Of a stretch of 64,000 bases of DNA, positions 15,419 through 60,600 are shown piece by piece. A program made the translations under genes and the position numbers. Location: NCBI GenBank assembly GCA_000091205.1, contig AP006488.2. One strand, 5' to 3'. The DNA is from Cyanidioschyzon merolae (lineage: Eukaryota). Every line of letters starts with the position of its first letter. The stretch's first letter is position 1. Under the pieces are notes generated by a model, which worked only from the letters and a program-made list of their open reading frames with translations, was not told where the DNA came from and searched no databases.

Positions 15419-15743
15419 ATGCGTAGAGGTCGTGGTGAGCCTTGTGAAACCGGGGCTCGACGGGAGCTGGCGTGTACGTTGAGCTTCGTTCCGCCTGGGT
15501 CGGCTGGCGGGTGGACTCGTGGTAAGCCGCCACCACCACCACCAACACCAACACCACGTGCACCATTATCACCACGATCACCGCCAGGTTCGTGTCAACA
15601 AGTTTCAAGGACGATACCAGCGTCGGCACGAGCCAACAATTGCGAGCGGGTACGCATTCACGCAGTCGATTCGTGTGTTTCTCTAGTCGCGTTGCGGCGA
15701 CGAGACTCGAGCGGGATCGGCGTTCTAGGTCGTGACCGCGCCC

Positions 15744-15775
<32 letters not shown>

Positions 15776-19335: not shown

Positions 19336-21621
19336 CTACCGTTGGTGTTGGTGAAAGCTTTGCAACGCCCGCGGCATCAACTTTGCGAGATGTGCGCGGT
19401 TTGTGTGCCTCTCGCTGCGCAGTGTCGCTTGAGTGGCATCCTTGGATGAGCGCTGCCCAGTTTCATGATCATGAACACGAGGATGGCCTCGTTGACGACG
19501 ACGACGACGATGCTGAAGCATTTGCACTAGACGGGTTCGGAGCGCTTCGGCCTTCGTGTCGATCACATTTTGTTGACGCCTTCGTAGTCGATTGGCGAGA
19601 GCATTCCTCCCACGGCTCTTTCGGAGTGAGGGGTGCTTCACCCGACGCCGCCACGGCGGTACCGAAGCCGACAAACCCCCGTTCTCATCGGTCTGTGCAT
19701 CCTCGGGTGCCGAGCTCTGGTCTTCTCGAGGTGCTGCCTCGTTGGGTGCAGTTTCTGCTGGTGGTCGGTAGCGAAGCTGCGAGACTCGCCTTCCTGTGCG
19801 CTGGACTCTGCGGTGATCTCGTTCTACCCGTCCAATAAAGTTCGGGTCGAGCGCGATGGTTTCTGGTGGGAGCTTCTCCAGCAGCAGCTGCACTTGCGCT
19901 GCGCGGCGCTGTGCTTTCTGCCAGTAGGGGTTAGGCTCAAGCGCATCAAACTCGGGCTCTCCGGATCCAGGGACGAGGCACGACTCGAACCCAGTAGAGT
20001 AGCCAACACCGAGCACATCTTCGAAAGGCGCAAAAGCAACAGCGCTGATCCGCGTCCCGCCGGCTCCAACACCGACCCGTGTCTGCAGGTAGGGCTCGTA
20101 CGCCTTGGCCTCGTACAGTGCCCAGTCCTTCCAGATGATCACTCGACCTCCAGCGCTGTGCCCGATCGCCAAGAGCCCAGTTTGACTGACGTCCATTGAG
20201 GTAATCAAACCACCGCTTTTCGATTCGTAGGAATGAATCGGTCGGAACAGTTTCCGCATGTCCCATACGGCAAAGTGTCGACTCGCTGCCCCGGCGGTTA
20301 CCAGGTAACGACCGCCGTGATCGGTGGCGACGGCAGCAACGCCACCGTAACCCGGATGCGCAAGAACCTTTGCCAACGGCTCGTTTGGCATAGCCGGAGA
20401 CCACAGCTGCACCGTTCCGTTGGCATGTCCGGTGAACGCGACGCCATGGTAGGGGCTCGTCGTGAGCGCAGCGCTCGGTCTGCCCAGATGCGTCGGGAAC
20501 TGGGCCACCGTCATTCCATTCGAGACGTCGGTGTAGTGGAGTTCGCCCGTCTCGCTCATACTCAATAACAAAAGATGATATCGCAGAAAATCGAGACTAT
20601 GTGGGCGCGAGTGTTGACGCAGGCAGTGGATCTGGGCACCACTGACGGCGTCGTGGATAGCGACAGCACGTTCCACGGCCGCTGCAAACAACCCGTCTGT
20701 ATGCAACATCACAACATCGCGGAGGTGTTCTCCAAGGTGCAATTCTGGTGCCATGGTGCGCTTGCGGCGCCAGTCCAGAACGACGACATGGCCGTTGTGG
20801 AGTCCTCCCAGCAGCAAGACACGCGAGCTTGCAGAATAACGAGCTCGGTAGCCCATGGTGGGATGTTCGACACCGTTCGAGCTAGCGGCTCGTTCTTGCT
20901 TGCGGAGTACCTGCGAGGCGCGAGTTCGCGAGTAGTCCTCAAAGTCGAGGCGAAAACGCCCTCGTTGTGCATAGAGGCTGCTTGCTTCCTGTAGCGCTTG
21001 CTGAGAAACGTGGCTCGTATGGCGTTCGAGTTCAGACTCGGGCTCGATGAAACCACGCCGGCCTTCCCGATCGAGCAGCAAGTCAAGTTCAGCAGACCGT
21101 TCGGCTGCCTCTCGAGACTGGTGCACCACTTGTTCGATCTTATGCCGAAGGGAACGCTGCGAGACCCGCACCATCGTGTGATCGCTCAGCAGTGCAGTGG
21201 CGGCCGGGGGCAGTCGCTGGTACCGCTTGTAACCGGGTGTCGCCTCGAGCGTCGTCACGCGTTCCTCCACCATACTGAATTTGAATAGAACCCGAGATGC
21301 AATATCTAACGTAGTTTGACGCCAGAGAGCAAGTCGCGGAATCCGTGGAAGCGACCCGCGATTCGTCGACGACTCAGGCGCCGTGTGGCACACGCGGCAC
21401 CGCCAAGCCGTGTTTGCACCGGCGACGTTTGCGTTCCCGAGCTCGAACGCCTGCGTGCAGCTGTCGCGCAGGTTGATGAGCTTTAGGTTTAGATCCGATG
21501 GTGTCAGGTTGCTTTGATCAACGAAGGTCAAACGGACAACAAACGGGTCGTCATAAGATGTTGGCGAGTCCGCGTGGCATACGCAGGCCAAGTCTGCAAA
21601 CCGGATATGGATGTAGGTCAA
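19336..21621 (-). CDS. UTP7: U3 snoRNP / SSU processome WD40 protein UTP7 (WDR46/BING4 family)
   Basis: WD40 repeats with family-typical strings: 'LLLGGLHNGHVVVLDW', 'GTVQLWSPAMPNEPLAKVLAH', 'HFAVWDMRKLFRPIHSY', 'GGRVIIWKDW'. A BING4 C-terminal-like segment follows: 'EPNPYWQKAQRRAAQVQLLLEKLPPETIALDPNFIGRV'. The first ~116 codons have odd composition; the real start may be the Met at about 21273 ('MVEERVTT'). Confidence 0.8.
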   Translation of the reverse strand: MTYIHIRFADLACVCHADSPTSYDDPFVVRLTFVDQSNLTPSDLNLKLINLRDSCTQAFELGNANVAGANTAWRCRVCHTAPESSTNRGSLPRIPRLALWRQTTLDIASRVLFKFSMVEERVTTLEATPGYKRYQRLPPAATALLSDHTMVRVSQRSLRHKIEQVVHQSREAAERSAELDLLLDREGRRGFIEPESELERHTSHVSQQALQEASSLYAQRGRFRLDFEDYSRTRASQVLRKQERAASSNGVEHPTMGYRARYSASSRVLLLGGLHNGHVVVLDWRRKRTMAPELHLGEHLRDVVMLHTDGLFAAAVERAVAIHDAVSGAQIHCLRQHSRPHSLDFLRYHLLLLSMSETGELHYTDVSNGMTVAQFPTHLGRPSAALTTSPYHGVAFTGHANGTVQLWSPAMPNEPLAKVLAHPGYGGVAAVATDHGGRYLVTAGAASRHFAVWDMRKLFRPIHSYESKSGGLITSMDVSQTGLLAIGHSAGGRVIIWKDWALYEAKAYEPYLQTRVGVGAGGTRISAVAFAPFEDVLGVGYSTGFESCLVPGSGEPEFDALEPNPYWQKAQRRAAQVQLLLEKLPPETIALDPNFIGRVERDHRRVQRTGRRVSQLRYRPPAETAPNEAAPREDQSSAPEDAQTDENGGLSASVPPWRRRVKHPSLRKSRGRNALANRLRRRQQNVIDTKAEALRTRLVQMLQHRRRRRQRGHPRVHDHETGQRSSKDATQATLRSERHTNRAHLAKLMPRALQSFHQHQR

Positions 21622-29886: not shown

Positions 29887-30236
29887 ATGTTTCTCCAGGG
29901 GGAAGTACGCGATCGTCCGGTGCGGTACCAGGAGCGGTACCGGAGGTCGGCACAGAGAGCGGAGCCTTCTGTACCAGTCAACGGCACGTACCGGGCGACG
30001 AAGAAGATGTTAACGGGGCGCCGGGCAGCGCTCGGCGGTGCTGCGTTGTCGACATATGGGAAGACCTTGTTACATTCAAGTGTTCACGCTGCGAAGATCG
30101 CAACGAAGCTGTAACCAATGAAGAAGGACATAGTAGGCAAAGCGTCGATAGCGCCCTCCGCCCGTACATCGAATGCGTGGACCACTGCTGGAAGCCACGA
30201 GATCGGGACTCGAACGCCGCCATCACTATGCTTTGA
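29887..30236 (+). mobile_element. TnpB/Fanzor-like (OMEGA-type RuvC nuclease) C-terminal remnant, subtype 1; frameshifted pseudogene
   Basis: Two overlapping frames give '...ALSTYGKTLLHSSV' (RuvC-II-like 'yGk.vv') then 'TFKCSRCEDRNE...RPYIECVDHCWKPRDRDSNAAITML'. This is a CxxC...CxxxC zinc finger followed by an 'RDxNAAxN' RuvC-III-like motif, characteristic of TnpB/Cas12/Fanzor. Stops and frameshifts are present. Confidence 0.55.
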
Positions 30237-30559
30237 CTGTGAACATCGTAGCTGGAAAGAAAGGGCACACCAGCTACTTGAAAACTGGAGATGTGGTAGA
30301 GAAACGAATCCGTAGTAGGAACAGCTCGCCGAGGTCGCAGTTGCGAAACACCTGGGAGCAAAGCAAACCGAATCGTGCACATCGGCATGATCAAAGTGTA
30401 CCCGTCCCATTCCAAGCTAACGTGGATAGATACCACTGCCATGATCAAATCGCTTGTAGACTATCAACGTACTTTGGGTTCACCCCTGATACGGTACATA
30501 GCAGGAGATCGAATTCGCGATGCAATGTAATCTATAGATTGGAGACGGATTGCCTGTAG

Positions 30560-31390
30560 AATAGATTCATTTCTGAACAGTACATAGCGGACTGTGTTCC
30601 TCCTTCAGTTCAGTTATACGACAGTACTCAGATGGTTGAGGAAGACTGATAAATACAAGAAGATACGCGCTGTGCCAAAAACTGATATTCTCAAAAGTGC
30701 TTTCGGTCCGTGGCAGAAAACGACCTGTTGATTACCGTACAGGAAGCAAAACCGACGATCGTAACGACCACAAGCGTCTCTGTTTCTCAACAGATTGTAA
30801 GTACCGTCCTGAAAACAATGGGATCTAGTTGCAGATAAAGAGTCCTTGGTCATACACGGCAAACTTCCAGCGAAATCGCAACGAATACAGCGTTCCTGGA
30901 AAGTCATTGTAAGTATGAAACACGGGCACGTCGCTGTGTTTGTTCAGTCAATGAAACTTGCTTCGGAAGAAACGATCGGACCATGCACGGGTATCTTCGA
31001 GGTGCATGGAGCTCTTTTTATGTACGATCAAACTCGAAGCGAACGATAACACCATCTCTTCTATCTGGAGTGTATTCATTTGGCGACCTCAGTTTCGATC
31101 GCAGAGGAGGCTTGTAGATCAGCATCCGCTTTGTCGAATCATTGAAGACTTTCCTCTGACGTCTTGCGCCGTCCTGCTGTTGGACAACATGACATTTCAC
31201 CATTCGGGTTGCAAGCGTGATTCTGTCTATTCTCACTAGGTAAAGCTGGTTTTCGTTCCCCAGTACTTTTCGTTGGTCGACCCCATCGAGGGAGTCTGCT
31301 CTATCGTGAAACGTAGTCATCGCTCCAATGGGCGATTCGCTGAAGCGTTCAGCGCACGGTGACCCACCGGGGCACATGTCGTCTCTCTTC
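30560..31390 (+). mobile_element. Tc1/mariner (IS630-like) DDE transposase remnant, copy A; multiple frameshifts
   Basis: Frames give 'TVLRWLRKTDKYKKIRAVPKTDILKSAFGP' (HTH region), 'VQSMKLASEETIGPCTGIF', 'LLLDNMTFHHSG' (DDE 'DNAxxH' motif) and 'VPQYFSLVDPIEGVCSIVKR' (the 'PPYSPDLNPIENVW' motif). Each segment has a counterpart in copy B at 46640-47730. Confidence 0.65.
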
Positions 31391-31830
31391 CACAAGTCCT
31401 TGTCTCTCGGGGAAGACGCTCACCCAGGGTCGTCAAGAAATGCGTTTATCTTGAAAAAATCAAAGGGAAAGTTATGGACATGCAACTCGAAGATGCTTGA
31501 GAGCGCCGTCACCACCCCGTTCCACAAAAAACGAAAAAGATCCGTTTCTCGCCAAGTACCGAGTGACGAAGAAGACGACGATGAGGGATAGACGAGAAAA
31601 ACAGGATGTTTGCCCTGCGGAACGATAATGAAACTACAGTGGTTCAGAGGGAGCGAATCCGAGGAATCCTCGCAACGCTGAATCCCATCAGATGCAAGAA
31701 ACGCATGGAGTTCGTGAACCGAGACCTTAACGCTGCTATGAATAGCAGACAATGTGCGATACTGAAGAAAATACCCGAGGAAAGAACACAATTGAACTTT
31801 CTGGGGCAGCCTCTTAGACTCTAGAAACGC
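31330..31830 (+). mobile_element. TnpB/Fanzor-like C-terminal remnant, subtype 2; pseudogene
   Basis: 'FILKKSKGKLWTCNSKML...' (RuvC-II/ZnF-like 'kGk...TSqtCs') then 'NPIRCKKRMEFVNRDLNAAMNSRQCAILKK...NFLGQPLRL'. It is homologous to the minus-strand copy at 41440-41890 ('ADCNARREFQNRYVNAAINTRRCAVL...NFVAQPLRL'; 'FSNLWTGASSRLQC'). Confidence 0.55.
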
Positions 31831-31940
31831 ACAAGGAGAAGCTGAAACTCATAGGAGGCCACCGGTCGAAGAACGCCCGAGAAGCGTCTCGACGTTGGTG
31901 TGGATTCACGCGACAGCCGCGGAACTGCGCTTGAGAATTT

Positions 31941-32546
31941 GTGGCAGTCTATCGTGAAACGCTGACCCAGAATGAACTGATGACGATTAATCAAAACGAG
32001 CAGGAAATCATTTATGAGTTTGAAAAGTACACCGGGTTAGCGCAGCAGGAGTACGACGACCAAACTGCACCCGGGAAAGATACAGACATATGCCAGGCGT
32101 GGTTAGAGAACCGCTGCGAACGGGGCGACCTCTGCCAGTACCGCCACTCTAGAAGCAAGTCACTGATTGTCTGCAAACACTGGTTACGTGGACTATGCAA
32201 AAAAGGTATAGAGTGCGAGTTTGTTCACCGTTTTGAGCTTGACAAGATGCCAGAGTGTTTCTTTTTCAGTCGCTACGGCGAGTGCACCAACGACGAGTGC
32301 ATGTACCGCCACGTTGTTGCCGACTCCCGACGTATGGAGTGTCCTTTCTATGCCCGTGGTTTCTGCAAACATGGACCGCGGTGTCGTTACAAGCACGTGC
32401 AGAAAGTAGCGTGTGCGAATTATTTGGGCGGTTTTTGTCCCAAGGGACCAGCGTGTCGCTTTGGACACGCCAAGTTTGAGATCGACCTGCAACAGGTGCT
32501 GCACGAGGCGGAACGATTCGGTGATCGCAGTGTTTCCTGGCGCTAG
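31941..32546 (+). CDS. CPSF4: Cleavage and polyadenylation specificity factor 30-kDa subunit (CPSF4/Yth1), five CCCH zinc fingers
   Basis: Five tandem C-x8-C-x5-C-x3-H fingers: 'CQAWLENRCERGDLCQYRH', 'CKHWLRGLCKKGIECEFVH', 'CFFFSRYGECTNDECMYRH', 'CPFYARGFCKHGPRCRYKH', 'CANYLGGFCPKGPACRFGH'. Spacing and flanks are as in CPSF30. Confidence 0.8.
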   Translation: MAVYRETLTQNELMTINQNEQEIIYEFEKYTGLAQQEYDDQTAPGKDTDICQAWLENRCERGDLCQYRHSRSKSLIVCKHWLRGLCKKGIECEFVHRFELDKMPECFFFSRYGECTNDECMYRHVVADSRRMECPFYARGFCKHGPRCRYKHVQKVACANYLGGFCPKGPACRFGHAKFEIDLQQVLHEAERFGDRSVSWR

Positions 32547-39215: not shown

Positions 39216-40872
39216 ACTAACCGAACAGCGTTATACTTTCCTGCTTGAAACTTTCATTTCCTTGGAAACTGAGAGAGCGCGGTCATCCACGAAGAGCGGA
39301 TAGCGCGCGATGGGTTCCGCGTCATGCGCATGCGCGCTGCCCCGACGACACGCAGAGCGACCCGCGATGCCATGCCGATCAATCTGCGTCTCGGTGCCAC
39401 GTCTGTCCTGTCCAGCAATGTACAGAAGTGTAACAATATATAATTTCATCCCTTCATAGGTAGAAAAGAATCATCGTAGGATAGTTTCGTGCAAGGTCGA
39501 TGATTGAGCAGAGTCGACCTGCGCGTCGATCGTGGACGCATCGCGATCGATCTGCCCGCGAGGCTCGCAGGCGCTCGGCACACGCAAGACACTTGAATTG
39601 CGAGTGGGTACACCATCAGCGTACGCCAGCTTCTTCAAGCGAGGTTCATCGTGAGCGACCAGGGGCGCGTCTTGTGCATGCGCATGGACAGCATGGTCAC
39701 GAGCTATGCGCCGTTGAGTGAGTTTGCCTGCATCCGCTACCGTCGGTGCACATCGAGCTCACGTGAGACAGCGCGTGCATGACATCTGCAAATGCGATAC
39801 ACACGAACGGAGTACGCTTCTGTGCGGCACGTGCGCTAGAAGTGGACGCGCGGCCTTGTAGCAGCTCGATTCGCTTCGTGGCGAGGACGAGGCTTCTGTG
39901 AGTACAGAGCCATGGTGACTTGACGACGATTGCTGTTAGAGTTTGATTCGAACGGGAGATAAAACCCCATCTATATCTGAGGTTACGAACGGCATTCAGC
40001 TTGTTCGCCAGGGTATCTTATCAAATTCGAAAAATTTCTTTGTATGGTTTCGCCAGAGTATCGTAGTATGCTGAACCGTTCCATCTGTTCATGCCGTTCG
40101 ATTCGTGGTTGAACTCTTGTCGTACATTCATGGAGTCGATATTCGAAGTCGAGCACGAAATGCTCAGTTATGCATACGGAATTTCATGATTCTCGGCTTT
40201 CTTTTCGCCGTGGCTCCTTCGACTCTCTGTCGATGGAATTCTTTGCGCCACCGCAGTCAAAATGATTCTCAAGGCCCGAAAACAATGGTTTATTACATAA
40301 CGAATACCGTTATCCCGTTCCTGGATACGCGTCGCCGTGCTTCTCTCTTCCTTACATGCAACATGCTCAAATCGCGCATTCTTCAGATTTTCGAAACTTC
40401 CATTTCAAGGCAAATGATGGATGCAGCGATTCGCACACCACGATGGATGAAGGAAAGATATCGATCTCGTCGCTTGGCGACCTGTCCGCACGCTCATATC
40501 AAATCTACTGACCTTGTCAGGTCAAAAAATGAATTCATATGGAAGGACAAATTCCAATGTGTTTGTGGCTGTCAACTATACGGCATTCCACACCAGCATC
40601 ATCCATCTCACGGAAAATGCTTGCAGACGCTCCCGTCTTGTCTGTGTGCGTGGAGGAGGGCCACGGCCTCGGATTTGAGTCACCATTGCGATCGTATGAA
40701 ATGGAGAATGTGTCATAGGTTTACCCGAAGCGAGAAACGTCGGGTCGAAGTCGCGCGAACTCTCCTGCAGACTGGATTTTCCTTACTGCACTTGTATCAT
40801 TATAGACAGCATCAGGTTCGAAAAATCCTCCACCGAATGAAACATCGTGCGCTTGCACGCACAGCAGGTGAC

Positions 40873-41229
40873 CTACTGGCCTGGGGGATCGCCCAGAGCA
40901 TGCTGGAAATCGTAGTGAGCTGCCCAGCGCGCGCAAACGGAATAGGGCATAAAAGCGAGCCCCCTGTCTCCGTCAAAGGGATGTACACGGCGATGAGGCA
41001 AGCATTCACGCAGCACAGGGCAGCACCTGGACGATGAATCGTGGTGGACACATACGGGAACACCTGACCACAGCCGTATGGCAGCGTTGGAAATGCAGCA
41101 TCCCGACGTTATGCAAGGAATCTGATAATGGCAAGCGATGTATGGATTACAACTCTCGCATGTGCACATCCGCCGACCACAACAGCCGACAACATCGAAA
41201 TTCGAAGTTTTTAACGCTACGATCACCAT
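40873..41229 (-). mobile_element. TnpB/Fanzor-like C-terminal remnant, subtype 1 (second locus); pseudogene
   Basis: 'CTCESCNPYIACHYQIPCITSGCCISNAAIRLW' parallels 'CSRCEDRNE...RPYIECVDHCWKPRDRDSNAAITML' at 29.9-30.2 kb: Cys-rich zinc-finger remnant plus 'SNAAI' motif. Confidence 0.45.
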
Positions 41230-41439
41230 TCTTTGACTGCTGACAACTCATCCGGGTGCAACGGAGTCACTAGCATATTCGAATCCATAGATAAAAGAGA
41301 AAAATTGAACCAGTTGCCGAAAAACCCGCAAAGACTGGTTCTGATGACAGTAGTACGTGACCCGCAGGTTAGTGTTCATGCGCAAGGTTCAAAGCCTATT
41401 TCCGACATATTCAGAAAAAAGTTTCCCAGAAATCGTTGA

Positions 41440-41890
41440 TCAATCAAAAAATGCCCCATGACTATCGATCGTAAACGTATACCCACTCACAGGTCCCTCC
41501 TGGCCTTTGTCGACGAGCCATCTGCCATTGGCTTCAGCTTTTTCTTGTACACTATGAGTCTGAGAGGCTGCGCTACGAAGTTCGCTTGCCTCATCTCCGC
41601 GGTTGTCGTCGTCAGCACCGCGCATCGTCTGGTATTGATTGCGGCATTGACGTATCGATTCTGGAACTCCCTGCGTGCATTGCAGTCGGCTGGACGCACC
41701 AGTCCAAAGATTACTAAAACTGGTCCACTCAGTGTCGATTTCTTCCCGCCATCGTCCCGTCGGTCGTAAACATTTTTGTCGTCCAATTCCCAGTTTCTTC
41801 TTCTTCCTCGTTACTTGCACTTCTCCATTCTTTGATATGGAAAAAGAGGATTTCTTTCGTGTTTTTCCGGCAGTCGGTGACATCGGCCCT
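41440..41890 (-). mobile_element. TnpB/Fanzor-like C-terminal remnant, subtype 2 (second locus); pseudogene
   Basis: '...KKLGIGRQKC...WTSFSNLWTGASSRLQC' and 'VRPADCNARREFQNRYVNAAINTRRCAVL...NFVAQPLRL'. The 'vNAAiNi.RRc' string is a close match to the TnpB RuvC-III consensus, and the segment is homologous to 31330-31830. Confidence 0.55.
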
Positions 41891-42289
41891 CCGGGAACCT
41901 CGATTCCCTTATCCGCAATGTTCTTTATTTTTTATTTCTGAAAAAGAGCGTAATTTGAACGCGTCTGCTATAAACCGCGAAAACACGTTTCATGACACGC
42001 ACCTGGCGATTGAACCCAACTGAGGTAAAAGACGATGCTTTGCGGTGGCGTCAACGTCGATACCTCTCGTACGTTAGAGCTTCATGCAAATGATAAGAAA
42101 CGTGTTTCCCTTCAACGCCAAGACGCATATCGTGTTTCATGCCTTCCAGATGTGGAGCTGCACGTATCTGTCGCGCTACAGAAAAGGAACAGAAACGACC
42201 CATTAACTAGCATCTGGATAAAATTTCATTTCCCTCGCTATGGTAACCGTTGAACGAGAGAAAATCTTTCCATATTGCCGAGAGTTCAG

Positions 42290-48949: not shown

Positions 48950-50236
48950 CTATTCAATACGCCCGGGGTTTGCGTTACGACTCTTGTGCGCATCGCTCGT
49001 CGCCGATAACCGCTCTGGAAGCTGGTCCACATGAAATGGGAACATTTCGCCCTCTGCTATCGCTCGAATGCCTTCACGATAGCTGGGGTACCACAGATCT
49101 GCCGAGCCGCCCAGCAGGACTGCCTTTGCCGTGTGGTTGCGGATGCGCTTCTGGAGGCGGGATTCCGAAGAAATCGCGCTTAACTGACCCGTTCTGGACT
49201 GCGCTGCATAGTCCTCAACCTGAGCACGCGTCGCAGGTTCATTGTCCACCAGGTTGAAGACGCCCTTTGCTCTCTGTGCAACACCGCTGAGCAGGAGACG
49301 CGCAGCGTCGGCAACGTGTATTCGATTCACCAGCGTATCACGCGGTCGCCGCGATCCTTGCCTAGTTTCGCTGTGCTCGTGGTAGGCCAACATCGTGTCC
49401 AGGACACTGCGACGTGTCCATCCACGCTTGCCTCTTAGCGATGGTGGAATCGGACCGTATACGGCCCCAAGTCGGAAGCGGGCGAGTCGCACTTCCAGTC
49501 GATGTGCGAGCTCTCCTGCTCGCTGTTCAGCCTGCCAACATGCCGCTGCTTTCTCTGTGGATAAGTCGAGTGGAGCGCTTTCGTCGATCCAGGACTCTCC
49601 TCCAGGCGCATACAGACTCGTGCTCGACAGGAGACCTATCCACCGTAACGAGGGGAGGAGTCCGTCTCCGACTACGTGCTCCAACCAGGAAATCCATTCG
49701 CCGTGCACAAGTACGTGTGTGATCAATTTCAGGTGATCTGGCTCAACACATTGTGAAAGCGACAGGCAAACTCGATCTTGGAGCAGCAGGCGATAGTCAG
49801 CGACCTCCGAACCCTGACGATAACACGCAACGACGCTTTGTGGCAAGGCTGGAGCCGAGTCTTCCGCGCCTGAATGTGGCTGCGGGCTTGTTTCACAGTG
49901 CTTTCCGTGCACCCAAAGGCAAGCCACTGCAGTGGTAACATAGCCCAGAGGCACAATGAGTAGGCTTGTTGGCGAGGTCTCGCGCTCAGTGACGAGCCTC
50001 CACGAGCTGAGACGGGACGCGAGCCCAGGACGTTGCAATCTACTGAGCGCTCTCAAGGGAAAGCGGTGACCTGGTAAAGTCCTCGTCGGCTGCTGCACGA
50101 AAAGAAGAGCAGGGTATGGTCTACCACGCCTTTGAACAGTGGTTTTCGCGGTTTGCATCAGTACGGCAAACGTCGAGCGTTCTTGGGAACGAGTTGTTGC
50201 TGCGAGCGTATACACCCTTGACAGAATAAAGCGCAA
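48950..50236 (-). CDS. NAD(P)-dependent epimerase/dehydratase-like (SDR39U1/YfcH-like) protein; 5' extent uncertain
   Basis: The C-terminal half reads 'ARFRLGAVYGP...RIHVADAARLLLSGVAQRAKGVFNLVDNEPATRAQVEDYAA', typical of the SDR epimerase family. A degenerate 'VLVHGEW' aligns to the Gly-rich NAD motif. The first ~100 codons of the ORF are probably not coding. Confidence 0.45.
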   Translation of the reverse strand: MRFILSRVYTLAATTRSQERSTFAVLMQTAKTTVQRRGRPYPALLFVQQPTRTLPGHRFPLRALSRLQRPGLASRLSSWRLVTERETSPTSLLIVPLGYVTTAVACLWVHGKHCETSPQPHSGAEDSAPALPQSVVACYRQGSEVADYRLLLQDRVCLSLSQCVEPDHLKLITHVLVHGEWISWLEHVVGDGLLPSLRWIGLLSSTSLYAPGGESWIDESAPLDLSTEKAAACWQAEQRAGELAHRLEVRLARFRLGAVYGPIPPSLRGKRGWTRRSVLDTMLAYHEHSETRQGSRRPRDTLVNRIHVADAARLLLSGVAQRAKGVFNLVDNEPATRAQVEDYAAQSRTGQLSAISSESRLQKRIRNHTAKAVLLGGSADLWYPSYREGIRAIAEGEMFPFHVDQLPERLSATSDAHKSRNANPGRIE

Positions 50237-52179: not shown

Positions 52180-54504
52180 CTAGGGAGCAACATTCAGCAG
52201 GAGACGCCACAGCGCATAGTTCGGCAGACCAATGAGCCCGGTCTCGCGGCGAATGCATTCAAGCATCTCGTAAAGCCGCTCTCGCGGGGCCTCCCGATCC
52301 GTAGAAACCGCTCGTTGTGAAAGCACGGCAAGAACAGTGGCCAGCACACGATAGCTTCCAGCGCTTGTGAAATAGACAGCGCTTCCTCGCTGCAGCACCG
52401 CTTCTGCTGTCGCCACAGCTTTCAAAAGCGCACCTTGATCTGTACCCGTTTCTGCGGCAAGTGACCCGTCATCGGGCCATTCTGCTGTCATCAAGAGGCG
52501 ATTGCTGGGCAATGGCACCAGAAGCAGACGAATGCCCAGGCGCGTCGCACTTACTTGGAGCTGTTCCCGCTCCGCTGGGTTTGTACAGTGGACACGTTCG
52601 TGTGGTAGAAAAACGATCACGAGTCCGAGTGACCGGTCGGTAGACGCGGCTACGAGTGAAACGAGCGTCGTTTGGAGCTGTGTCGCAGAGAGGAAGGGGC
52701 CCACAAGCACTGCAGGATTCACCGATAAGCTGATCAAGGTTGGCGTTGTTGCCGTACTCGGCGGCGAAACGATATCCTCGCATACCATCGTGTGATTCAG
52801 ACAAGTGGTTTCATCGCACAAACGTCGAAATCGTGTCGGTCGATGTTCGTACTGAATAGCGTCTTCTGCTTCCGATTCTATTGCGTAGATATATTCCACG
52901 TCATCCCACGGCGGTCGGACAATGCTGAGTTCCCAGGTATCGGGCTCCGAGGCCGCACGCTGTAAGGCCACAAGACCTGGTTGCGTCCATAGCCCCAGTT
53001 GATACACGTCGCCGGTGGCGTAGACTTTCTTGATCAAATGCTCGGGTTGAGCAGGAGCCACTGGCCTTTCGATATGCACGCGCAACTTGATCAACGTAAA
53101 AGCATCTTGCACTGCTTCAATGTAGTCGTGAACTCGAACCGGTTTGGAAGCACTCGAACGCGAGACCGAGCGAACTCGAGGACGAAAAGCATCCAACCAT
53201 GCGTTATCCGTTGAGGAGTGTCGCAGTATCGATTCAGCTGTGGTGATAGAGGCTGCGCCTGTGCGTTGCACGCTGTATGCAGGCACTTCAAATATTACTC
53301 GTGTTGCGCGTCGATCACCTAAACGGTCGTCGAGAAAGAAATATACGTAGCGAATGGATTCGCTGGTGAGTGCGCCCGTCGAAAACAGCGCTACAGTCAG
53401 GTAAAATGTGCGTCGCTGAACAGAGAATTCCAGCTTACGAGCGACGTTCAGATTCCAGCTTCCCAACTCCATCATGTTGCCTGTCATGCAAAGACTCAAG
53501 TGATTCGCAGCGGCTTCCATTTGTTGTAGCACGCTGTCGTCACACTGAACGGCAAAATGAATGCATACATGTCCGGGTGATGAGGTTCTCTCGGCAACAG
53601 CGGTATCCGTTTGTTGCGCTAGCACGCTGCTCGCCGGCATGTGTGCGGCTTTCTCTAGGAAAGGTGCTGCTGAGTGGTGTGCACCACCAGCACGCAACAC
53701 GGAAGCGCTGCTGGTGCTCTCTAGGAAAGGTGATGCTGAGTCGTGTACACCACCAGCATGCAACACGGAAGCGCTGCTGCTGCTGCTGTTGTTGTTGTTG
53801 TTGTCCGTCGCAGCAACGCGAGTATCGCATTCCGTTCGTGTGAGGGAAGGCAGCGGTTCCGCCTCCGCCTTTGGCGATGGGGTGACTCGACTCGCTGGCG
53901 GCGTCCGTAGCCTTACGTCCAAGCGAGGGTGCACGGTGTGCGCACTCATAGAGCACTGCTTCGACGCCAGCGCTGCCTCGATATGCTCTTTCTGTGACCG
54001 GGTTTGCAAGCGAGGACGCAGTGCAGAAGCGCCTGGCAAGACGTCCAGCTGGAGCACCAGCGCTGGCGCGAAGTATGTGCTTCTCTTGGGCAAAAACTGG
54101 CTAGAGACGGACTGCCATATCGACGCATAGCGGTTCTCAAGCGCAGCCAACCGAGCAAGCTTCCAGTTCGAGGCGGTTCCTTGGAAACAGTTTGGAACCT
54201 CAAGCGCTGTGAGTCGAAGCGTGCTCACTGCTTCAGGGTCCCTGGCAAGGAATCCAACACTCGGTACTCTCGCTTGTATAAGCCGCTCAAGTTCCAATGA
54301 ACCAGACGGCACTTGCCCTTCGTCCGGGCGTTTCAAGCTCTCTGACGCCGGTGTCAGGTTCCAGACTGCGTCGCGAGGCGATAGCCTCCGCTCGGAGACA
54401 CGGCAGGAAAGCCGTTGTTCCCATTCCAGTTTATGTGCTGAGAGGTCCGTACAGTCCAAGAAGACTCTCGTCCCGTAGTGGAACGGAGGTGCTGCAGTAG
54501 CCAT
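52180..54504 (-). CDS. Tandem CBM20-like (starch/glucan-binding) domain protein with a C-terminal HCx5R phosphatase-like motif; possible laforin-like glucan phosphatase
   Basis: Two CBM20-like segments: 'HFAVQCDDSVLQQMEAAANHLSLCMTGNMMELGSWNLNVARKL...FYLTVALFS...IRYVYFF' and 'VYATGDVYQLGLWTQPGLVALQRAASEPDTWELSIVRPPWDDVEYIYAIE'. Downstream is 'VHCTNPAER' (CX5R). An internal ~30-aa duplication ('SSASVLHAGGVHDSASPFLE' / 'SSASVLRAGGAHHSAAPFLE') sits between the N-terminal region and the CBM20 pair. The domain order, CBM then phosphatase motif, is as in laforin. Confidence 0.5.
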   Translation of the reverse strand: MATAAPPFHYGTRVFLDCTDLSAHKLEWEQRLSCRVSERRLSPRDAVWNLTPASESLKRPDEGQVPSGSLELERLIQARVPSVGFLARDPEAVSTLRLTALEVPNCFQGTASNWKLARLAALENRYASIWQSVSSQFLPKRSTYFAPALVLQLDVLPGASALRPRLQTRSQKEHIEAALASKQCSMSAHTVHPRLDVRLRTPPASRVTPSPKAEAEPLPSLTRTECDTRVAATDNNNNNSSSSSASVLHAGGVHDSASPFLESTSSASVLRAGGAHHSAAPFLEKAAHMPASSVLAQQTDTAVAERTSSPGHVCIHFAVQCDDSVLQQMEAAANHLSLCMTGNMMELGSWNLNVARKLEFSVQRRTFYLTVALFSTGALTSESIRYVYFFLDDRLGDRRATRVIFEVPAYSVQRTGAASITTAESILRHSSTDNAWLDAFRPRVRSVSRSSASKPVRVHDYIEAVQDAFTLIKLRVHIERPVAPAQPEHLIKKVYATGDVYQLGLWTQPGLVALQRAASEPDTWELSIVRPPWDDVEYIYAIESEAEDAIQYEHRPTRFRRLCDETTCLNHTMVCEDIVSPPSTATTPTLISLSVNPAVLVGPFLSATQLQTTLVSLVAASTDRSLGLVIVFLPHERVHCTNPAEREQLQVSATRLGIRLLLVPLPSNRLLMTAEWPDDGSLAAETGTDQGALLKAVATAEAVLQRGSAVYFTSAGSYRVLATVLAVLSQRAVSTDREAPRERLYEMLECIRRETGLIGLPNYALWRLLLNVAP

Positions 54505-54526
54505 GCACTTTCAAAGGCGAGCACAC

Positions 54527-54834
54527 GCCCTTCTCGAGCGCAGTACACTGCGACCTTTTCTGAACCGCTGTTGTTACCAGCTTCAACAGCCTTAGCCTCT
54601 AAGGTTTGGCTTTGGCGACCCAGTGCAGTGCCCTTCTCGAGCGCAGTACACTGCGACCTTTTCTGAACCGCTGTTGTTACCAGCTTCAACAGCCTTAGCC
54701 TCTAAGGTTTGGCTTTGGCGACCCAGTGCAGTGCCCTTCTCGAGCGCAGTACACTGCGACCTTTTCTGAACCGCTGTTGTTACCAGCTTCAACAGCCGTA
54801 GCCTCTAAGGTTTGGCTTTGGCGATCCAGTGCAG
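54527..54834. repeat. Tandem repeat, 103-bp unit x ~3, filling the divergent intergenic region between the 52180-54504 (-) and 54953-57694 (+) genes
   Basis: 'ttctcgagcgcagtacactg' recurs at 54531, 54634 and 54737, an exact 103-bp period. The unit is 'cccttctcgagcgcagtacactgcgaccttttctgaaccgctgttgttaccagcttcaacagccttagcctctaaggtttggctttggcgacccagtgcagtg'. It produces the repeated pseudo-ORFs 54354-54982. Confidence 0.9.
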
Positions 54835-54952
54835 CGTTTGCGGCGACGCCATAGCACCACAGCACCAGTTGTCTACGGAAGCCGTCTGGGGCTTGACGCG
54901 TTCCTGAAGCGTACTTTTCAGACTTTAGCGCTTCTATCAGTTTGCTTTTGGA

Positions 54953-57694
54953 TTGTGGGACCTCTCTAATATGGAGACACATATAATTAGCGACGAGGAT
55001 GAAAGACTCGCTAGACAGCGAAAAATGCTCTTCGAAAAGTTCGGGATAGAAGCGGACACTCTGGGGGACGCGGCACCGTCGGCGGTACCTCCGAACAAAA
55101 GCGCTGAATACACGGAAGCGGACCGCGTTGGTGTACTAGGCAAGACGTCTTGCGGACAGGCGCAAGGTCAGAGGGCGATTTCACCCCCCAGCACTCCCAG
55201 TGTGGTTCAAATTGCAGAGGAAAGTCAGGATGCAGACCTTCATAACGCAACGCCCGACCCCCAGCGAGACTACGGACTGCGTCTGCTTGGAAGCAGGTTT
55301 CATTATCGCGCAAGCTTGCACGAACAGGCTCGAGCATCACGGGAACTGTTCGCGGTTACACCAGTGACGGCGTACGCGTCGCCGCTGGTGGAGAGCTCAG
55401 CGCACCGCATTGCTGTGCACGACCACTGGATCGCTTATGCGGTGAAAAACCATATCCGGTTGCTCGATAGGCTCCAAATCCAGCGCGCCCTCCTGAAAGG
55501 CCACGAGGGCCCTGTCGAGGAGCTCTCCCACGCACCGCAGTGCCCACAGCTCCTGCTCTCTAGTGCAGCCGATGGTAGTGTAATCTTCTGGCGGCTCGAG
55601 GGTTGGGATGGAACGTCGCGATCGCCGAGCGAGCACCTACAGTGGCGCTTTCAGCTCTCGAACCGACGGAGTTCCCGTATTGCGCTCTCCCCAGATGGAC
55701 GCTGGATAGCCTTCACAGAGGACGCTCGGGTACACGTGCTTCCCGTCACCGCTGATGGCGATGTGGAAAGCAGGCAGCACACAGTGATTCCAACAACGCA
55801 TGAGGTTCGTGATATTGCTTTCGTTGCCAAGGCAGCTGCAGCTGGTTGGTTGCTTGTTTTAGCTAGTGCTCATGGAATGGTACATATCGCTGAACCGGAG
55901 CACGGCACGATCGTGGGGGAGTTCTGCGCTCACAGTGGGGCGCCAGTGGAACGTGTCCTCAGCCTCGCGCCGCAGGTGCTCGTCACTGCAACATCGTGTT
56001 GTACAGAGCTGTGGTATTGGCGACTCGTTGGGCTCTGGGCTCCGCCGCAGAGCGGCAGCGTACAGCTCCTCGCGCGCTGCTCTTTTCATGAATATGCGAG
56101 CTTGGGGCCGCTAGCGACCGATCCCGAGGGAGAATTCCTCTTTCTCGCGAATCACGAGACCAGGCAACTTTTTGTTCTGCACCATGCGAGTGGAACCTTT
56201 ATCCCGGATTATTTGGTGCAGGTGCCTCTGCGGTATTCGATTGCCAGCTTCTGTGCGACTCGTTCTGTTCGTCGAGAACGTGACCTGGATGAGAAGTCTG
56301 GACTACCACAGTTGCGTGAAAACGTCTTTCTTGACCTGTGGTGCATGCATGAAAAGTGTATTCAGGGGTATCATGTACGTCGCGAACACTTGGCGCCAGC
56401 AGGAGAAGCACCCCCGGCCGAGTTGTCGCTCGAGAGCTCCAATCATGACGAGAACTATAATGATCTTGATGACCCTGTTCATGATGATGATGATGATCGT
56501 CATCGTGCTGTTGGTGCTGCTGGTGACGATGATGATCATGGTGATGCTGCCGGAAACCGGGTGCACGGGCGACCTGTGCTGGACGTTTCAGCTTCGCAGC
56601 CACTCGAGGGGTTGATGTCGACGTCGCCGCCGGTGCTGGTGACCCACACCCATACCCTGTACGAGGCTTTTCGGAAGATCGCTCCGCAACTGAAGCAGCG
56701 AAGCTCAAGCTCCAGAAAGCACTCGGCCATTGGCGTGGGCAGCGCTGCCTCAAGCTCTCCGAGTCCAAATGCTGGCGACGCTGCCTCAAGTTTGCCAGTC
56801 GATGTTCGAACACTTGCTCCAGAGAGCAATGGTGAAGCTGGCGCTGCTACGCCAAAGCGCGGAGACTTTCCAGATCAGGCGACGAGCGCTGGAATGCCTT
56901 TGTTCACGGAGAAGCGCATTCTGGAACTTGAAGCGCGACTGACGCGTATAGAGCAGCTCCTGCATGAACTCATGGGCACGGTGAACCACACCAGGTCGGA
57001 GACAGCCTCGACGATGCACGGTCTTCTCCAACAGATTGCCAAAGAGCACCTCGTGCCGGCTCTGATGCGCACCAGTGCCGAGACGGCAACATCGCTCTCT
57101 CGAGCGCTCGACGAGGCCATACGGGTTCGCTTCAAGCCGGTTACCGAACAGCTGGAACAAGCGTTACAGCGGACACTGCAATGGCCCACGTCAGGACCTG
57201 TGTCTTCTGCTGGAATGACGGCGACGACACTGGTGCCCACCGGGTACACGGCACCGACACCGACACCACGAGAGCAGATCCTGCGATGGCTGCATCAACA
57301 ACCGATGCCGGACGAGGATCGAGCGTTTCACGCAGCGCTCAATCTAAGTGATCTGGAGACGTTGGTCTGGCTCTGCAAGCAGTGCTCTCCGGAGCTTGTC
57401 TGCGAGAAGCTCTCCCAGCCTGTGCTCCTCTCTCTGGTCCAGCAGTTAGGTTTCGATTTGCGGACCCATCTCGAATGCAAGTTATCGTATTTAGAGGAAG
57501 CGGTGCCGCTGATTCAACCGAAAGATCCGATTATCGCTCGGCATATGGAACCAACCATGCGTCAGCTTGTGCATAATCTAGATGAACAGGTTTTACATGC
57601 TGGTGAAGAGGTTGCACCTGCGCTTCGGACGCGGGCTCGTTTGCTGCGCAAGGTCGCCACGCTGTTGCTCCTTTCACCATCGCCAGCGAGTTAA
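54953..57694 (+). CDS. EDC4: Enhancer of mRNA decapping 4 (EDC4/Ge-1/Varicose)-like WD40 protein
   Basis: N-terminal WD40 region: 'RIAVHDHWIAYAVKNHIRLLDRLQIQRALLKGHEGPVEEL', 'DGSVIFWRLEG'. Ser/Asp-rich linker. The C-terminal helical domain 'LVWLCKQCSPELVCEKLSQPVLLSLVQQLGFDLRTHLECKLSYLEEAVPLIQPKDPIIARHMEPTMRQLVHNL' recalls the EDC4 C-terminus ('LLSLIQQL...LKLSYLEEA...DP'). Recalled from memory, not searched. Confidence 0.6.
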   Translation: MWDLSNMETHIISDEDERLARQRKMLFEKFGIEADTLGDAAPSAVPPNKSAEYTEADRVGVLGKTSCGQAQGQRAISPPSTPSVVQIAEESQDADLHNATPDPQRDYGLRLLGSRFHYRASLHEQARASRELFAVTPVTAYASPLVESSAHRIAVHDHWIAYAVKNHIRLLDRLQIQRALLKGHEGPVEELSHAPQCPQLLLSSAADGSVIFWRLEGWDGTSRSPSEHLQWRFQLSNRRSSRIALSPDGRWIAFTEDARVHVLPVTADGDVESRQHTVIPTTHEVRDIAFVAKAAAAGWLLVLASAHGMVHIAEPEHGTIVGEFCAHSGAPVERVLSLAPQVLVTATSCCTELWYWRLVGLWAPPQSGSVQLLARCSFHEYASLGPLATDPEGEFLFLANHETRQLFVLHHASGTFIPDYLVQVPLRYSIASFCATRSVRRERDLDEKSGLPQLRENVFLDLWCMHEKCIQGYHVRREHLAPAGEAPPAELSLESSNHDENYNDLDDPVHDDDDDRHRAVGAAGDDDDHGDAAGNRVHGRPVLDVSASQPLEGLMSTSPPVLVTHTHTLYEAFRKIAPQLKQRSSSSRKHSAIGVGSAASSSPSPNAGDAASSLPVDVRTLAPESNGEAGAATPKRGDFPDQATSAGMPLFTEKRILELEARLTRIEQLLHELMGTVNHTRSETASTMHGLLQQIAKEHLVPALMRTSAETATSLSRALDEAIRVRFKPVTEQLEQALQRTLQWPTSGPVSSAGMTATTLVPTGYTAPTPTPREQILRWLHQQPMPDEDRAFHAALNLSDLETLVWLCKQCSPELVCEKLSQPVLLSLVQQLGFDLRTHLECKLSYLEEAVPLIQPKDPIIARHMEPTMRQLVHNLDEQVLHAGEEVAPALRTRARLLRKVATLLLLSPSPAS

Positions 57695-60600
57695 AGGACT
57701 TGAGTGGAAGTACGCTTTAGGTCCGATCGTAAATTTCCTATTGCGCCTTGTTCTAATGTAAGTGACACAAAGGACTTGAGAAGAGGTACGGTTTAGGTCT
57801 GATCGGAGATATCCCGTGGCAGACTTGCCTTCGACAATATCCTGGAACGCATCGTGCGACGAGCGCCATACCGCGCACTACGATGTTCGCAGAGCAGTGG
57901 ACCCTGGAACGCATGTACCAGTACTTCTTGATTCGGCTTTCTGTCTCGCTGGTATACGAGAAAAGGGAGTGTCATTCGCAGATCGAAGAAAGGTCGCGGA
58001 AAGACTTGATGGTACAACTGCGGCCTTGCGAAAGAAACACAGGCAAACTTCAAGTTACCAATTCAACGTTCAGCAGGTAGATAAGCAATGCTTATCGTAG
58101 CAGCTATTCGGCAAGAAAAGCAACCAAACGGGAATGCCCCGAACATTATCCGCATGACTGTTTCCTCGTCGATCCATGGTTGGCGGCACATTCCCTGCGA
58201 AAAACTGCACGAGAGGCAATAGGATATGGAGTTTCCGTATCTTAGATACGAACAAATATGAAGACGCACGGAGGGTAAAGGAAATAACGTGCGTCCAGAT
58301 TGGTTTCATACTAACTTGCAAACGCTCAGAAAAAGAGCGATGCTTGTTCATCTCACTCGTTGAGCCTGCATTCGAAGGAAATGCTAGACATGTCCATGGG
58401 AACTCAAGTAGCGGCAAACATGTGTTTCTAAATAAAAGACAAGCGACAGTGAAGACTGCATCAGTCCTAGCGTCAATGGGATCATATGGTTGCCTCTATA
58501 TCGCCACACGGATCGGAATGTTCAACAAATTATGCTTCTTCATCGGAGCATTTCTTGGCTTCTTCTTTGCACAGCTTTCTCACCTGATCTCTGATAAGAT
58601 GGTGTTTTATCGCGCCAAAGCAGTCGTGGAGCATGCAGCTGCTACTGATATTGAGCTGCTCTTCATGCCAGCCTATTCTATCCAGTTCAGTCGAGTCAAA
58701 AGCGTGTTCTCTGTTGTCGAACGCCATCATTTCGCGCAGAGATCAATGGACTGGTCGTTTGAATCCGTGACACCTTTATTCGACATGTCGACCTCTGTTG
58801 TCATTAACCCTTAAATGCTCCGTTGTGTCTTTGCTCATGCACCAAAGAGAGTGCGATGCAACCGTGCTGCCCGTGGGCGTACTCGCGGCCGAGAAGGCAA
58901 TGGGAATGTACTTGAGGCATCATTGGTACGTTCTAGAAATGACGAGTTTGTTTTCGAGTTTCCTCCCGGAGCTTCTTCATCCCGAAGGAGGCACCGAATA
59001 TGGACTATACCGTGCACAACAATGCAATGCAGCTATGAAAATAAGAAGACGAAGAAAAGCATGAAATTTCAGAGGAAATGACGAACAGGAATCGGAACGA
59101 ATACCTATCGCAATGGAAAGAACCGTTTGAATCCGTGTTCACGGCCACGGCACAATGACATATCGACGACAAGAATCTTTCAGACTGAGAGCTATGCGAC
59201 ACCATCCAGGTTTGCGCAGCTTCCCTCGCCTTGATGCACGTCATCGAGCAACTTTTCACAAGAGATTACGACGCGTGACTGCCACCTGTCCACATTCTAC
59301 CGGAATTCTAGGATCGTACTTTCGTACGAGTACGCAAACGATGCTCGGGGCAGAAGCTGTAGTACAGCCTGACCGTAGGATCAGGGATTCGTAGACACGC
59401 TTCCCAGAGTACGAGTTCTTGCCGCCGCGCCACGTCAGTTAATCTCGCTTCTACAGCTCGGTGCCAAAAAGTAGCAAACGAACCTAAAAAACCACGGGCT
59501 GGTCAATTTCGAGCGCCTCATGAGTCGCACCCCGTGCGCATTCGAGTTTCATCTTACCTACCCAGAAAAGTCGACGTTGATGGAAGAAATTCATGGGGCG
59601 AAGATCATGGCGATTGATCAGCGAAATGGTCCAAGAGCAGAGGATGGTACATAGCTCTGGTGAGGTGTCCCAACGAGAGCAAGAGTCGCTTCAGAGCGTC
59701 CAGGCTAACCCTGTTGCGCTTCGTCTTGGGCCGTCGGGCGTTGTATCCTGTAAATAAGTGAAACGTAACGCATGTCTTGCTTGCATCAAGCGCTGCGACG
59801 TCATTCTGAACAGATCCCACCGGAGCACGGCAGACATACTACCCGAATCCGAGTACGCTCGCCTCCTCAAGGTTCTGTCCGAACATGTCCCAGCAGGTGA
59901 GACTGAGACCCATCGCATTGCAGCAGATATGTCTATCGTATACGATATGGTCTTGTCGTGATCTTCGGCGCGTATCTGCATGCAGATATGAAGCAGTGAA
60001 CCAGCACTGCGAAGGGCATTGGCGAAGCTCATGCAACGACTCGCGTTTACAGGCAGAAATTGGAAAGAGGCTGACATTGCAATGGAACCCCACCGAGTAT
60101 CCATCCGCATGCACTTTGCCAAACCGAGGCCTGAGTCGAGCATCGAGATTCGTTGTCAGCCGTAAAAGGTAGATGAAGAGAAAGGCTTCACGGCGGACGT
60201 GGATCTCGGGTTGAAGGCCATCATGGTCGTCGCCGTACCTCTGGATCAAGAGGACAGCACCGATGGCCGCAGCGGTAAGCAGAGGAAGCTGCTCAAAATC
60301 ATCCAGGGCTCTATTGGATCCAGTGTCGGGCACAGTGGACGCCAGCAGGCGAGCCACCAGGTGAAATGGTGGTGTCAGGACGCCTCGCGACGCTCTGACT
60401 ACGCGATCGATCCCAGCTGGATATGTTGTGTGCTTCCAACTCAGAGCGTACATGAGCGTCCAAATAACGAGCGCCGATGATCTTCAGCGGATGTCCATGA
60501 GATCGTCCAGCGTTCGCCAACGGTTTCTATTGTCAAGCGGCATACATCTGCCATCTTGTTCCGTTCGCTGGAAAAATGGCATGTGGGACATGTCGTGTAG

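Follow-up and report, generated by a model that had tools for sequence, protein, structure and literature searches.

What is the function of a protein that carries CBM20-like modules and a phosphatase-like motif in an alga that already has an active laforin? This question is raised by CMF167C, a gene on chromosome 6 of Cyanidioschyzon merolae 10D that lies within the 64,000-nucleotide stretch of DNA analysed here (the window). The initial annotation had placed a 774-residue protein at this locus, and proposed from its CBM20-like segments and the motif 'VHCTNPAER' that it is either an active glucan phosphatase or, if its P-loop is dead, a non-catalytic glucan-targeting scaffold. The predicted protein is real: its open reading frame (ORF) is intact, and the product is an exact match to BAM79521.1 / XP_005535807.1 / UniProt M1UPX2, which is named "hypothetical protein" at NCBI and "CBM20 domain-containing protein" at UniProt. 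The reserve polysaccharide of C. merolae is cytosolic floridean starch (semi-amylopectin), which is phosphorylated by a glucan-water dikinase (GWD). The active laforin of this alga is encoded by a separate gene, CMT465C; it has been experimentally characterised, and sits at the granule surface. We find that CMF167C probably encodes a laforin-like pseudophosphatase, that is, a non-enzymatic protein in which CBM20 modules are joined to a dead dual-specificity phosphatase (DSP) domain. We put the probability of this reading, which leans on predicted structures, at roughly two in three (0.68).

We asked what fold the C-terminal domain adopts. An AlphaFold2 model of residues 576-774, built from an alignment of five orthologues, had a mean predicted local distance difference test score (pLDDT) of 65.8, a predicted template modelling score of 0.66, and a core at 77-88. 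When this model was compared with the PDB using Foldseek, 50 of the 50 matches listed were phosphatases of the protein tyrosine phosphatase (PTP)/DSP fold (best E 9.4e-6), among them the laforin DSP domain and LSF2. DSPs ranked first for both of the separately built models of this protein. Residues 599-774 are predicted, on the basis of these models, to have a DSP fold. A PTP/DSP-like fold does surround 'HCTNPAER' in the predicted structures and fold searches, as had been anticipated, and the proposed combination of CBM20 with a phosphatase-type domain also held up, the former by Pfam and the latter as a predicted fold.

Where, then, is the P-loop of this domain? The CX5R motif in 'VHCTNPAER' had been read as the P-loop, in which case CMF167C could be an active laforin-like glucan phosphatase with Cys640 as its nucleophile. 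The motif does exist, inside the DSP-fold domain and beside the CBM20 modules, but it is off the strand-loop-helix position of a P-loop. In both structure models it comes after a strand (residues 626-633) and starts a helix, where a DSP has its V-loop, and hhalign likewise places it opposite the laforin V-loop region. The loop has no Gly, and the orthologue alignment contains no conserved Asp about 30 residues upstream of the Cys, where a general acid had been envisaged. The motif itself also varies among orthologues: the Cys is replaced by Gly in P0018 ('LHGTSPMER'), and the Arg by Ala in the Cyanidium-type proteins P0020 and P0176 ('RCTGPGEAE'). By chance, about 1.06 CX5R motifs are expected per protein of this composition, and at least one is found in each of ten unrelated large ORFs from the window that served as controls (10/10, with HCX5R in 1/10). 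Because every control has the motif and about one is expected, CX5R by itself is no more than chance. The single control bearing HCX5R is a BING4/WD40 (U3 snoRNP-type) protein (19336-21621, minus strand), a perfect motif by chance. Finally, CMT465C already supplies C. merolae with an active laforin. The orthologue sequences largely refute Cys640 as a nucleophile, and we give almost no credence to this possibility; the motif is present, as first reported, and its role as a P-loop is not upheld.

The position of the P-loop is instead taken by the segment AVYFTSAGSYR-VLATVLAVL, which forms a strand (709-714), a loop and a helix (718-733) in both models. The alignments made with hhalign, against the human laforin sequence (verified against 4rkk) and a 12-species laforin profile, placed SAGSYR opposite laforin NAGVGR and 'LGLVIVF' opposite 'LGITAVMNF'; further upstream, 'RLGIRLLLVPLP' fell opposite 'EEGLAYIWMPTP' and 'VPLP' opposite 'WMPTP'. 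With the full-length alignment as query against the laforin profile, the match was collinear from the second CBM20 module through the DSP domain (230 columns), in the same register. The Asp of laforin 'PTPD' directly follows the aligned stretch, and therefore lies opposite Ser667. Judged from these alignments, Ser667 appears to stand at the position of the general-acid Asp, with the D-loop position reading Ser667/Asn668; members of the C. merolae clade have Ser here. Within the putative P-loop, Phe712 would stand in place of the His, and either Thr713 in place of the Cys or, if the Cys position has been deleted, Ser714 would come next. What is retained is Ala715-Gly716 and the phosphate-clamping Arg719, which are strictly conserved. 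Altogether, nine of the 11 positions of AVY.TSAGS.R are invariant in five orthologues, as against 32/176 for the whole domain, so that no other part of the domain is as well conserved. T713 and S714 are invariant in all five, and no Cys occurs within the loop in any of them.

That this block is near-invariant although the orthologues are only 28-43% identical argues for a retained ligand-binding role. The same pattern, with the loop as the most conserved block and its Ala-Gly and Arg kept, would fit catalysis as well as binding, and CMF167C could be a non-canonical active hydrolase or transferase that works via Thr713, Ser714 or another residue of the TSAGS(Y/F)R loop. Against this, Cys-to-Ser substitution inactivates laforin, including that of C. 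merolae (Cm-laforin), and is the standard means of killing enzymes of the PTP superfamily; the general-acid position, as noted above, is Ser; and we know of no precedent for a Ser or Thr nucleophile in the PTP/DSP fold. Such an activity is, in our estimation, very improbable. The signature of glucan phosphatases is DX30CX2GX2R (Gentry et al. 2007). This signature is absent from CMF167C, where FTSAGSYR occupies the position of the P-loop and only Gly716 and Arg719 of the motif are kept. Because the signature is lacking, Cys-to-Ser laforin is inactive and the active laforin is encoded elsewhere by CMT465C, we file CMF167C as a pseudophosphatase and not as a glucan phosphatase. We infer its lack of catalytic activity by analogy with the inactive Cys-to-Ser laforins. 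The first option of the initial annotation, an active glucan phosphatase, is thus not supported, given a P-loop equivalent without Cys, a D-loop position reading Ser/Asn, and CMT465C as the active laforin; its fallback, the non-catalytic glucan-targeting scaffold, is favoured by the degenerate P-loop in a DSP-fold domain.

The other half of the architecture is formed by the CBM20 modules. Pfam and NCBIfam searches with the whole protein and with the C-terminal domain returned CBM_20 only. On the whole protein, CBM_20 matched two stretches (E 2.3e-10, 40.6 bits, cut-off 23.3), so that the profile support on which the CBM20 proposal depended is there. The second module passes this cut-off by itself (29.1 bits, E 8.4e-7), and can be aligned to starch-binding domains of known structure, those of maltotetraohydrolase and glucoamylase, which were retrieved as PDB sequence matches. 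A fold search of the predicted structure also matched a starch-binding domain. By hhalign, the first module aligned to the second over 82 columns (probability 22.6%) and to the CBM20 core of laforin (probability 51.6%); its region is poorly predicted in the full-length structure model. We read the binding-site residues from an alignment to the glucoamylase starch-binding domain 1ac0 and from the orthologue alignment. The Trp of 'LG.W' is W350 in module 1 (within 'ELGSWN') and W506 in module 2, both invariant. The site-2 aromatic residue is the invariant W524 in module 2 and F367, invariant in five orthologues, in module 1. The second aromatic residue of site 1 is Tyr552 in module 2 (Trp in Cyanidium), and Phe405, again invariant in five orthologues, in module 1. 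As far as can be told from sequence, CMF167C holds two CBM20-type modules, of which the second is canonical and the first divergent.

Several observations weigh against the pseudophosphatase reading. The C-terminal ~176 residues have no Pfam DSPc match even at E<=10, a search that had been put forward as a check on the phosphatase domain. For this domain, sequence and profile searches of the PDB at E<=10 found no DSP, and returned only a spurious match to symplekin (E ~1). CMF167C or its profile as query retrieved no DSP-containing protein, even at E<=10. There is also no significant sequence similarity to laforin: the hhalign probability is only 4-7%, and mutual searches retrieve neither protein. 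Human laforin as query retrieved only vertebrate laforins among the matches listed, and the laforin profile retrieved only vertebrate-like fragments from metagenomes. Because its probability is so low, we take the hhalign alignment as agreeing with the fold result, and not as independent proof of it. The DSP assignment itself comes from models made on very few sequences (alignments of 3-5), with a mean pLDDT of 65.8 and 36.6, and the register from secondary structure and hhalign, which fit Thr713 in place of the Cys as well as a loop one residue shorter there. Alternatively, then, the C-terminal domain could be unrelated to phosphatases, the DSP match being a low-depth AlphaFold artefact on a generic alpha/beta domain and CMF167C a lineage-specific CBM20 protein. 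Since DSPs came first for both separately built models, and the weak hhalign alignment falls in the same register with SAGSYR on NAGVGR, we consider this unlikely.

Further points of the same kind concern glucan binding and function. Module 1 by itself reaches 18.5 bits (E 0.0018), short of the cut-off of 23.3, and its match spans profile positions 17-54 of 97; of the tandem CBM20s first proposed it is therefore module 2 that Pfam supports when each is scanned separately. The site-1 Lys (glucoamylase K578 / laforin K87) is lost: module 1 has Val at this position, and module 2 has Ile539. Laforin needs K87 to bind glucan, as glucoamylase needs its own Lys; because the equivalent residue is missing from both modules, CMF167C is no more than a candidate starch binder. 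Our literature search returned no mention of CMF167C, nor did the supplements of the C. merolae TOR proteome and phosphoproteome papers, and expression, localisation and interaction data for it, sought in both, were not found. A role of CMF167C as a scaffold or as a reader of phosphoglucan is one that we purely infer.

We also asked how CMF167C is distributed and conserved. Five family proteins were recovered when 1.84 billion cluster representatives were searched exhaustively by profile with HMMER, and two word-indexed searches covering 5.8 billion proteins, one by profile at E<=10, yielded the same set only. The family was confined in these searches to Cyanidioschyzon, Cyanidiococcus and Cyanidium, with no member in Galdieria or other red algae. 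Besides near-identical Cyanidioschyzon variants from metagenomes, it includes P0002 and P0018, two lineages further removed (41-43% identity to CMF167C), a fragment from Cyanidiococcus yangmingshanensis (F1559_001753), and Cyanidium caldarium CDCA03G0989 with a close relative (28-29%). The gene order RRM gene, ~390-aa SDR-like gene, CMF167C orthologue, Mpv17 and CpcD (nuclear) recurs, its first three genes being kept in at least four cyanidiophyte lineages.

These comparisons bear on whether CMF167C is a gene in decay, an ex-laforin paralogue that has lost its function and is drifting towards a pseudogene. The lost catalytic residues, the disordered and repeat-prone linker and the narrow taxonomic range could all be accommodated in this way. 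However, an intact full-length ORF has been kept in the Cyanidioschyzon, Cyanidiococcus-like and Cyanidium lineages at 28-43% identity, and conservation follows the domains, with 34-58% identity in the three C-terminal globular modules, 23-36% in the N-terminal 180 residues and 8-34% in the linkers. The P-loop block is near-invariant, and synteny is conserved. Decay is scarcely probable in the light of these patterns.

One further sequence, the gene model P0021 (eukprot ctg_129.g107) of the Cyanidium-type orthologue, was matched by the family profile only over positions 138-387. From about residue 530 on, within module 2, it becomes Arg/Gly/Ala-rich, unlike P0020/P0176. For its downstream part, a frameshift in the gene model or an assembly error seems more likely than a true variant.

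How might a pseudophosphatase of this kind work? The pair of CBM20 modules would anchor CMF167C on the surface of cytosolic floridean-starch granules, where the dead DSP domain would no longer hydrolyse phosphate. One option is that its pocket binds GWD-phosphorylated glucan chains via the retained Arg and the loop backbone; another is that the domain provides a docking surface for proteins of starch metabolism, possibly including CMT465C, the active laforin. Further partners may be recruited by the conserved region of 180 residues at the N terminus. A more specific version, which we regard as doubtful, is that CMF167C is a phosphoglucan 'reader': held on the granule by its CBM20 modules, its dead SAGS(Y/F)R pocket would bind the C6/C3 phosphate esters made by GWD without hydrolysing them, thereby shielding or marking the phosphorylated surface and gating the access of CMT465C and amylases. 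If this were true, it would add an unrecognised regulatory layer to the cycle of starch phosphorylation and dephosphorylation, and CMF167C would be the first pseudophosphatase directed at glucan to have its nucleophile substituted.

Table 1. Features of CMF167C, with positions counted from the first nucleotide of the window
Feature	Residues	Position	Strand	Basis or remark
CMF167C, complete coding sequence	774 aa + stop	52180..54504	-	Intact ATG ORF
N-terminal conserved region	1-180	53965..54504	-	23-36% identity to orthologues; 16 invariant positions
Low-complexity linker, poly-N/poly-S runs	181-310	53575..53964	-	13-20% identity; 1/130 positions invariant; pLDDT ~22
Tandem duplication, 66 bp x 2	22 aa x 2: SSASVLHAGGVHDSASPFLE / SSASVLRAGGAHHSAAPFLE	53652..53784	-	Tandem Repeats Finder (TRF): period 66, 2.0 copies, 92% matches; translation checked
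CBM20-like module 1, divergent	~311-410	53275..53574	-	Pfam CBM_20 partial match
CBM20 module 2	~466-562	52819..53109	-	Pfam CBM_20 match
DSP-fold domain (predicted), catalytically degenerate	599-774	52183..52710	-	Predicted structure
'VHCTNPAER'	638-646	52567..52593	-	Chance CX5R; loop/helix following strand beta3
D-loop equivalent (putative), PLPSN	664-668	52501..52515	-	hhalign; orthologue alignment
Degenerate P-loop (putative), AVYFTSAGSYR	709-719	52348..52380	-	Strand-loop-helix in models; hhalign to laforin

Upstream of the CBM20 modules, the N-terminal conserved region (Table 1) has no Pfam match and no PDB sequence match, even by profile at E<=10, and its pLDDT is low in the full-length model. 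Between this region and the CBM20 modules lies an internal duplication that had initially been put at about 30 residues; it is real and is located as described, and TRF shortens it to two copies of 22 residues. The duplication is absent in orthologues, and is thus lineage-specific. The linker of Cyanidium caldarium CDCA03G0989 (P0176) has its own unrelated tandem repeat at residues ~198-265, with about three copies of a unit of ~23 residues, 'ATP.AT.PAASAATMHPASPVAP'. That different repeats occupy the same linker in C. merolae and Cyanidium suggests that it grew by repeats independently in each lineage.

CMF167C lies among ordinary housekeeping genes. The window is intron-poor, eukaryotic DNA of ~55% GC, which might have suggested a kinetoplastid, but strand switches between genes are frequent and the orthologous loci have a nuclear CpcD gene, both of which speak against such an origin. 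Its other ORFs encode housekeeping proteins: PP2A-B56, a Vps54-like protein, cystathionine gamma-synthase, BING4/WD40, FtsH, Not1, an RRM protein, EDC4 and Sec23. An EDC4-like gene (54953-57694, plus strand) is divergent to CMF167C, with a gap at 54505-54952, or ~450 bp from the CMF167C ATG to the listed start. The EDC4-like ORF as listed opens with TTG, so that its true start is probably a later ATG. The gap may hold a bidirectional promoter shared by the two genes. On the other side, the ORF at 48950-50236 (minus strand) encodes a 428-aa protein without a Pfam match, the C-terminal half of which matches the uncharacterised NAD-epimerase/SDR-like structure 3ius (E 1e-10). An orthologue of this neighbour adjoins the family gene at every locus examined, with lengths of 396-402 aa (L001/L004/L005) and 381 aa (L006), and in C. 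merolae the block formed by the two genes has the opposite orientation, with respect to the RRM gene, from that in the other lineages.

Two other features of the window are worth recording. The cystathionine gamma-synthase (15419-17608, plus strand) has 729 aa in C. merolae 10D, and most of the listed members of its 90%-identity cluster, which come from metagenomes, have 555 aa; either the extra N-terminal residues are specific to the lineage, as an extension or a targeting peptide, or start codons were called differently. In addition, the 2-kb bins at 30001-32000, 40001-42000 and 58001-60000 have 48-49% GC against a background of 55-60%, and the bins at 30-34 kb and 60-62 kb have a strong positive AT skew (0.11-0.12). 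These low-GC or AT-skewed bins lie mostly outside ORFs of at least 250 aa.

Reversible glucan phosphorylation, by GWD on the one hand and laforin or SEX4 on the other, governs the solubilisation of starch, and in humans its failure leads to Lafora disease. It was in C. merolae, a genetically tractable organism, that laforin was shown to have a deep evolutionary origin. What is new here is the DSP-like domain of CMF167C, which is invisible to Pfam; public annotation ends at "CBM20 domain-containing protein." CMF167C gains from it a fold assignment and a testable hypothesis, and illustrates how far a DSP sequence can diverge while fold and P-loop shape persist. The protein would represent a laforin/glucan-phosphatase architecture turned pseudoenzyme and restricted to a few cyanidiophyte genera. 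If this is true, the cell that contains active laforin would hold a second CBM20 protein of laforin shape, catalytically dead, as a pseudoenzyme of the pathway, parallel to plant LSF1, BAM4/BAM9 and ISA2, and a simple system in which to ask what inactive glucan phosphatases do.

How does CMF167C compare with known systems? Our literature search found no description of a CBM20-bearing pseudophosphatase, both terms appearing together only in a general review of the DUSP family. In the models, CMF167C resembles laforin in having CBM20 N-terminal to a DSP-fold domain. It differs in lacking the residues of DX30CX2GX2R, with the Asp apparently changed to Ser and the Cys changed to Thr or deleted, and in adding a conserved 180-aa N-terminal region and a long disordered linker. 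Phosphatases of the laforin/SEX4 type from C. merolae and several further red algae also carry more than one CBM20. SEX4 and LSF2 are active enzymes, the former with CBM48 and the latter without a CBM; their CX5R is intact, whereas the P-loop of CMF167C appears degenerate. Among pseudophosphatases, the STYX type (STYX, MK-STYX, STYXL1) would be the closest structural precedent, judging from the predicted fold. These proteins bind phosphoproteins, lack carbohydrate-binding modules and have Cys replaced by Gly or Ser; no sequence similarity of CMF167C to them was detected. The closest functional precedent for a starch-bound inactive DSP, by functional analogy only, would be plant LSF1, a non-catalytic glucan-phosphatase homologue that is cited as a scaffold for the beta-amylases BAM1/BAM3 on starch. 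We detected no sequence relationship to LSF1, and no CBM48 or PDZ match in CMF167C by Pfam. LSF1 is plastidial, combines CBM48 with a PDZ-like domain and keeps its catalytic Cys, whereas CMF167C relies on CBM20s, presumably resides in the cytosol, as floridean starch does, and appears to have lost the Cys.

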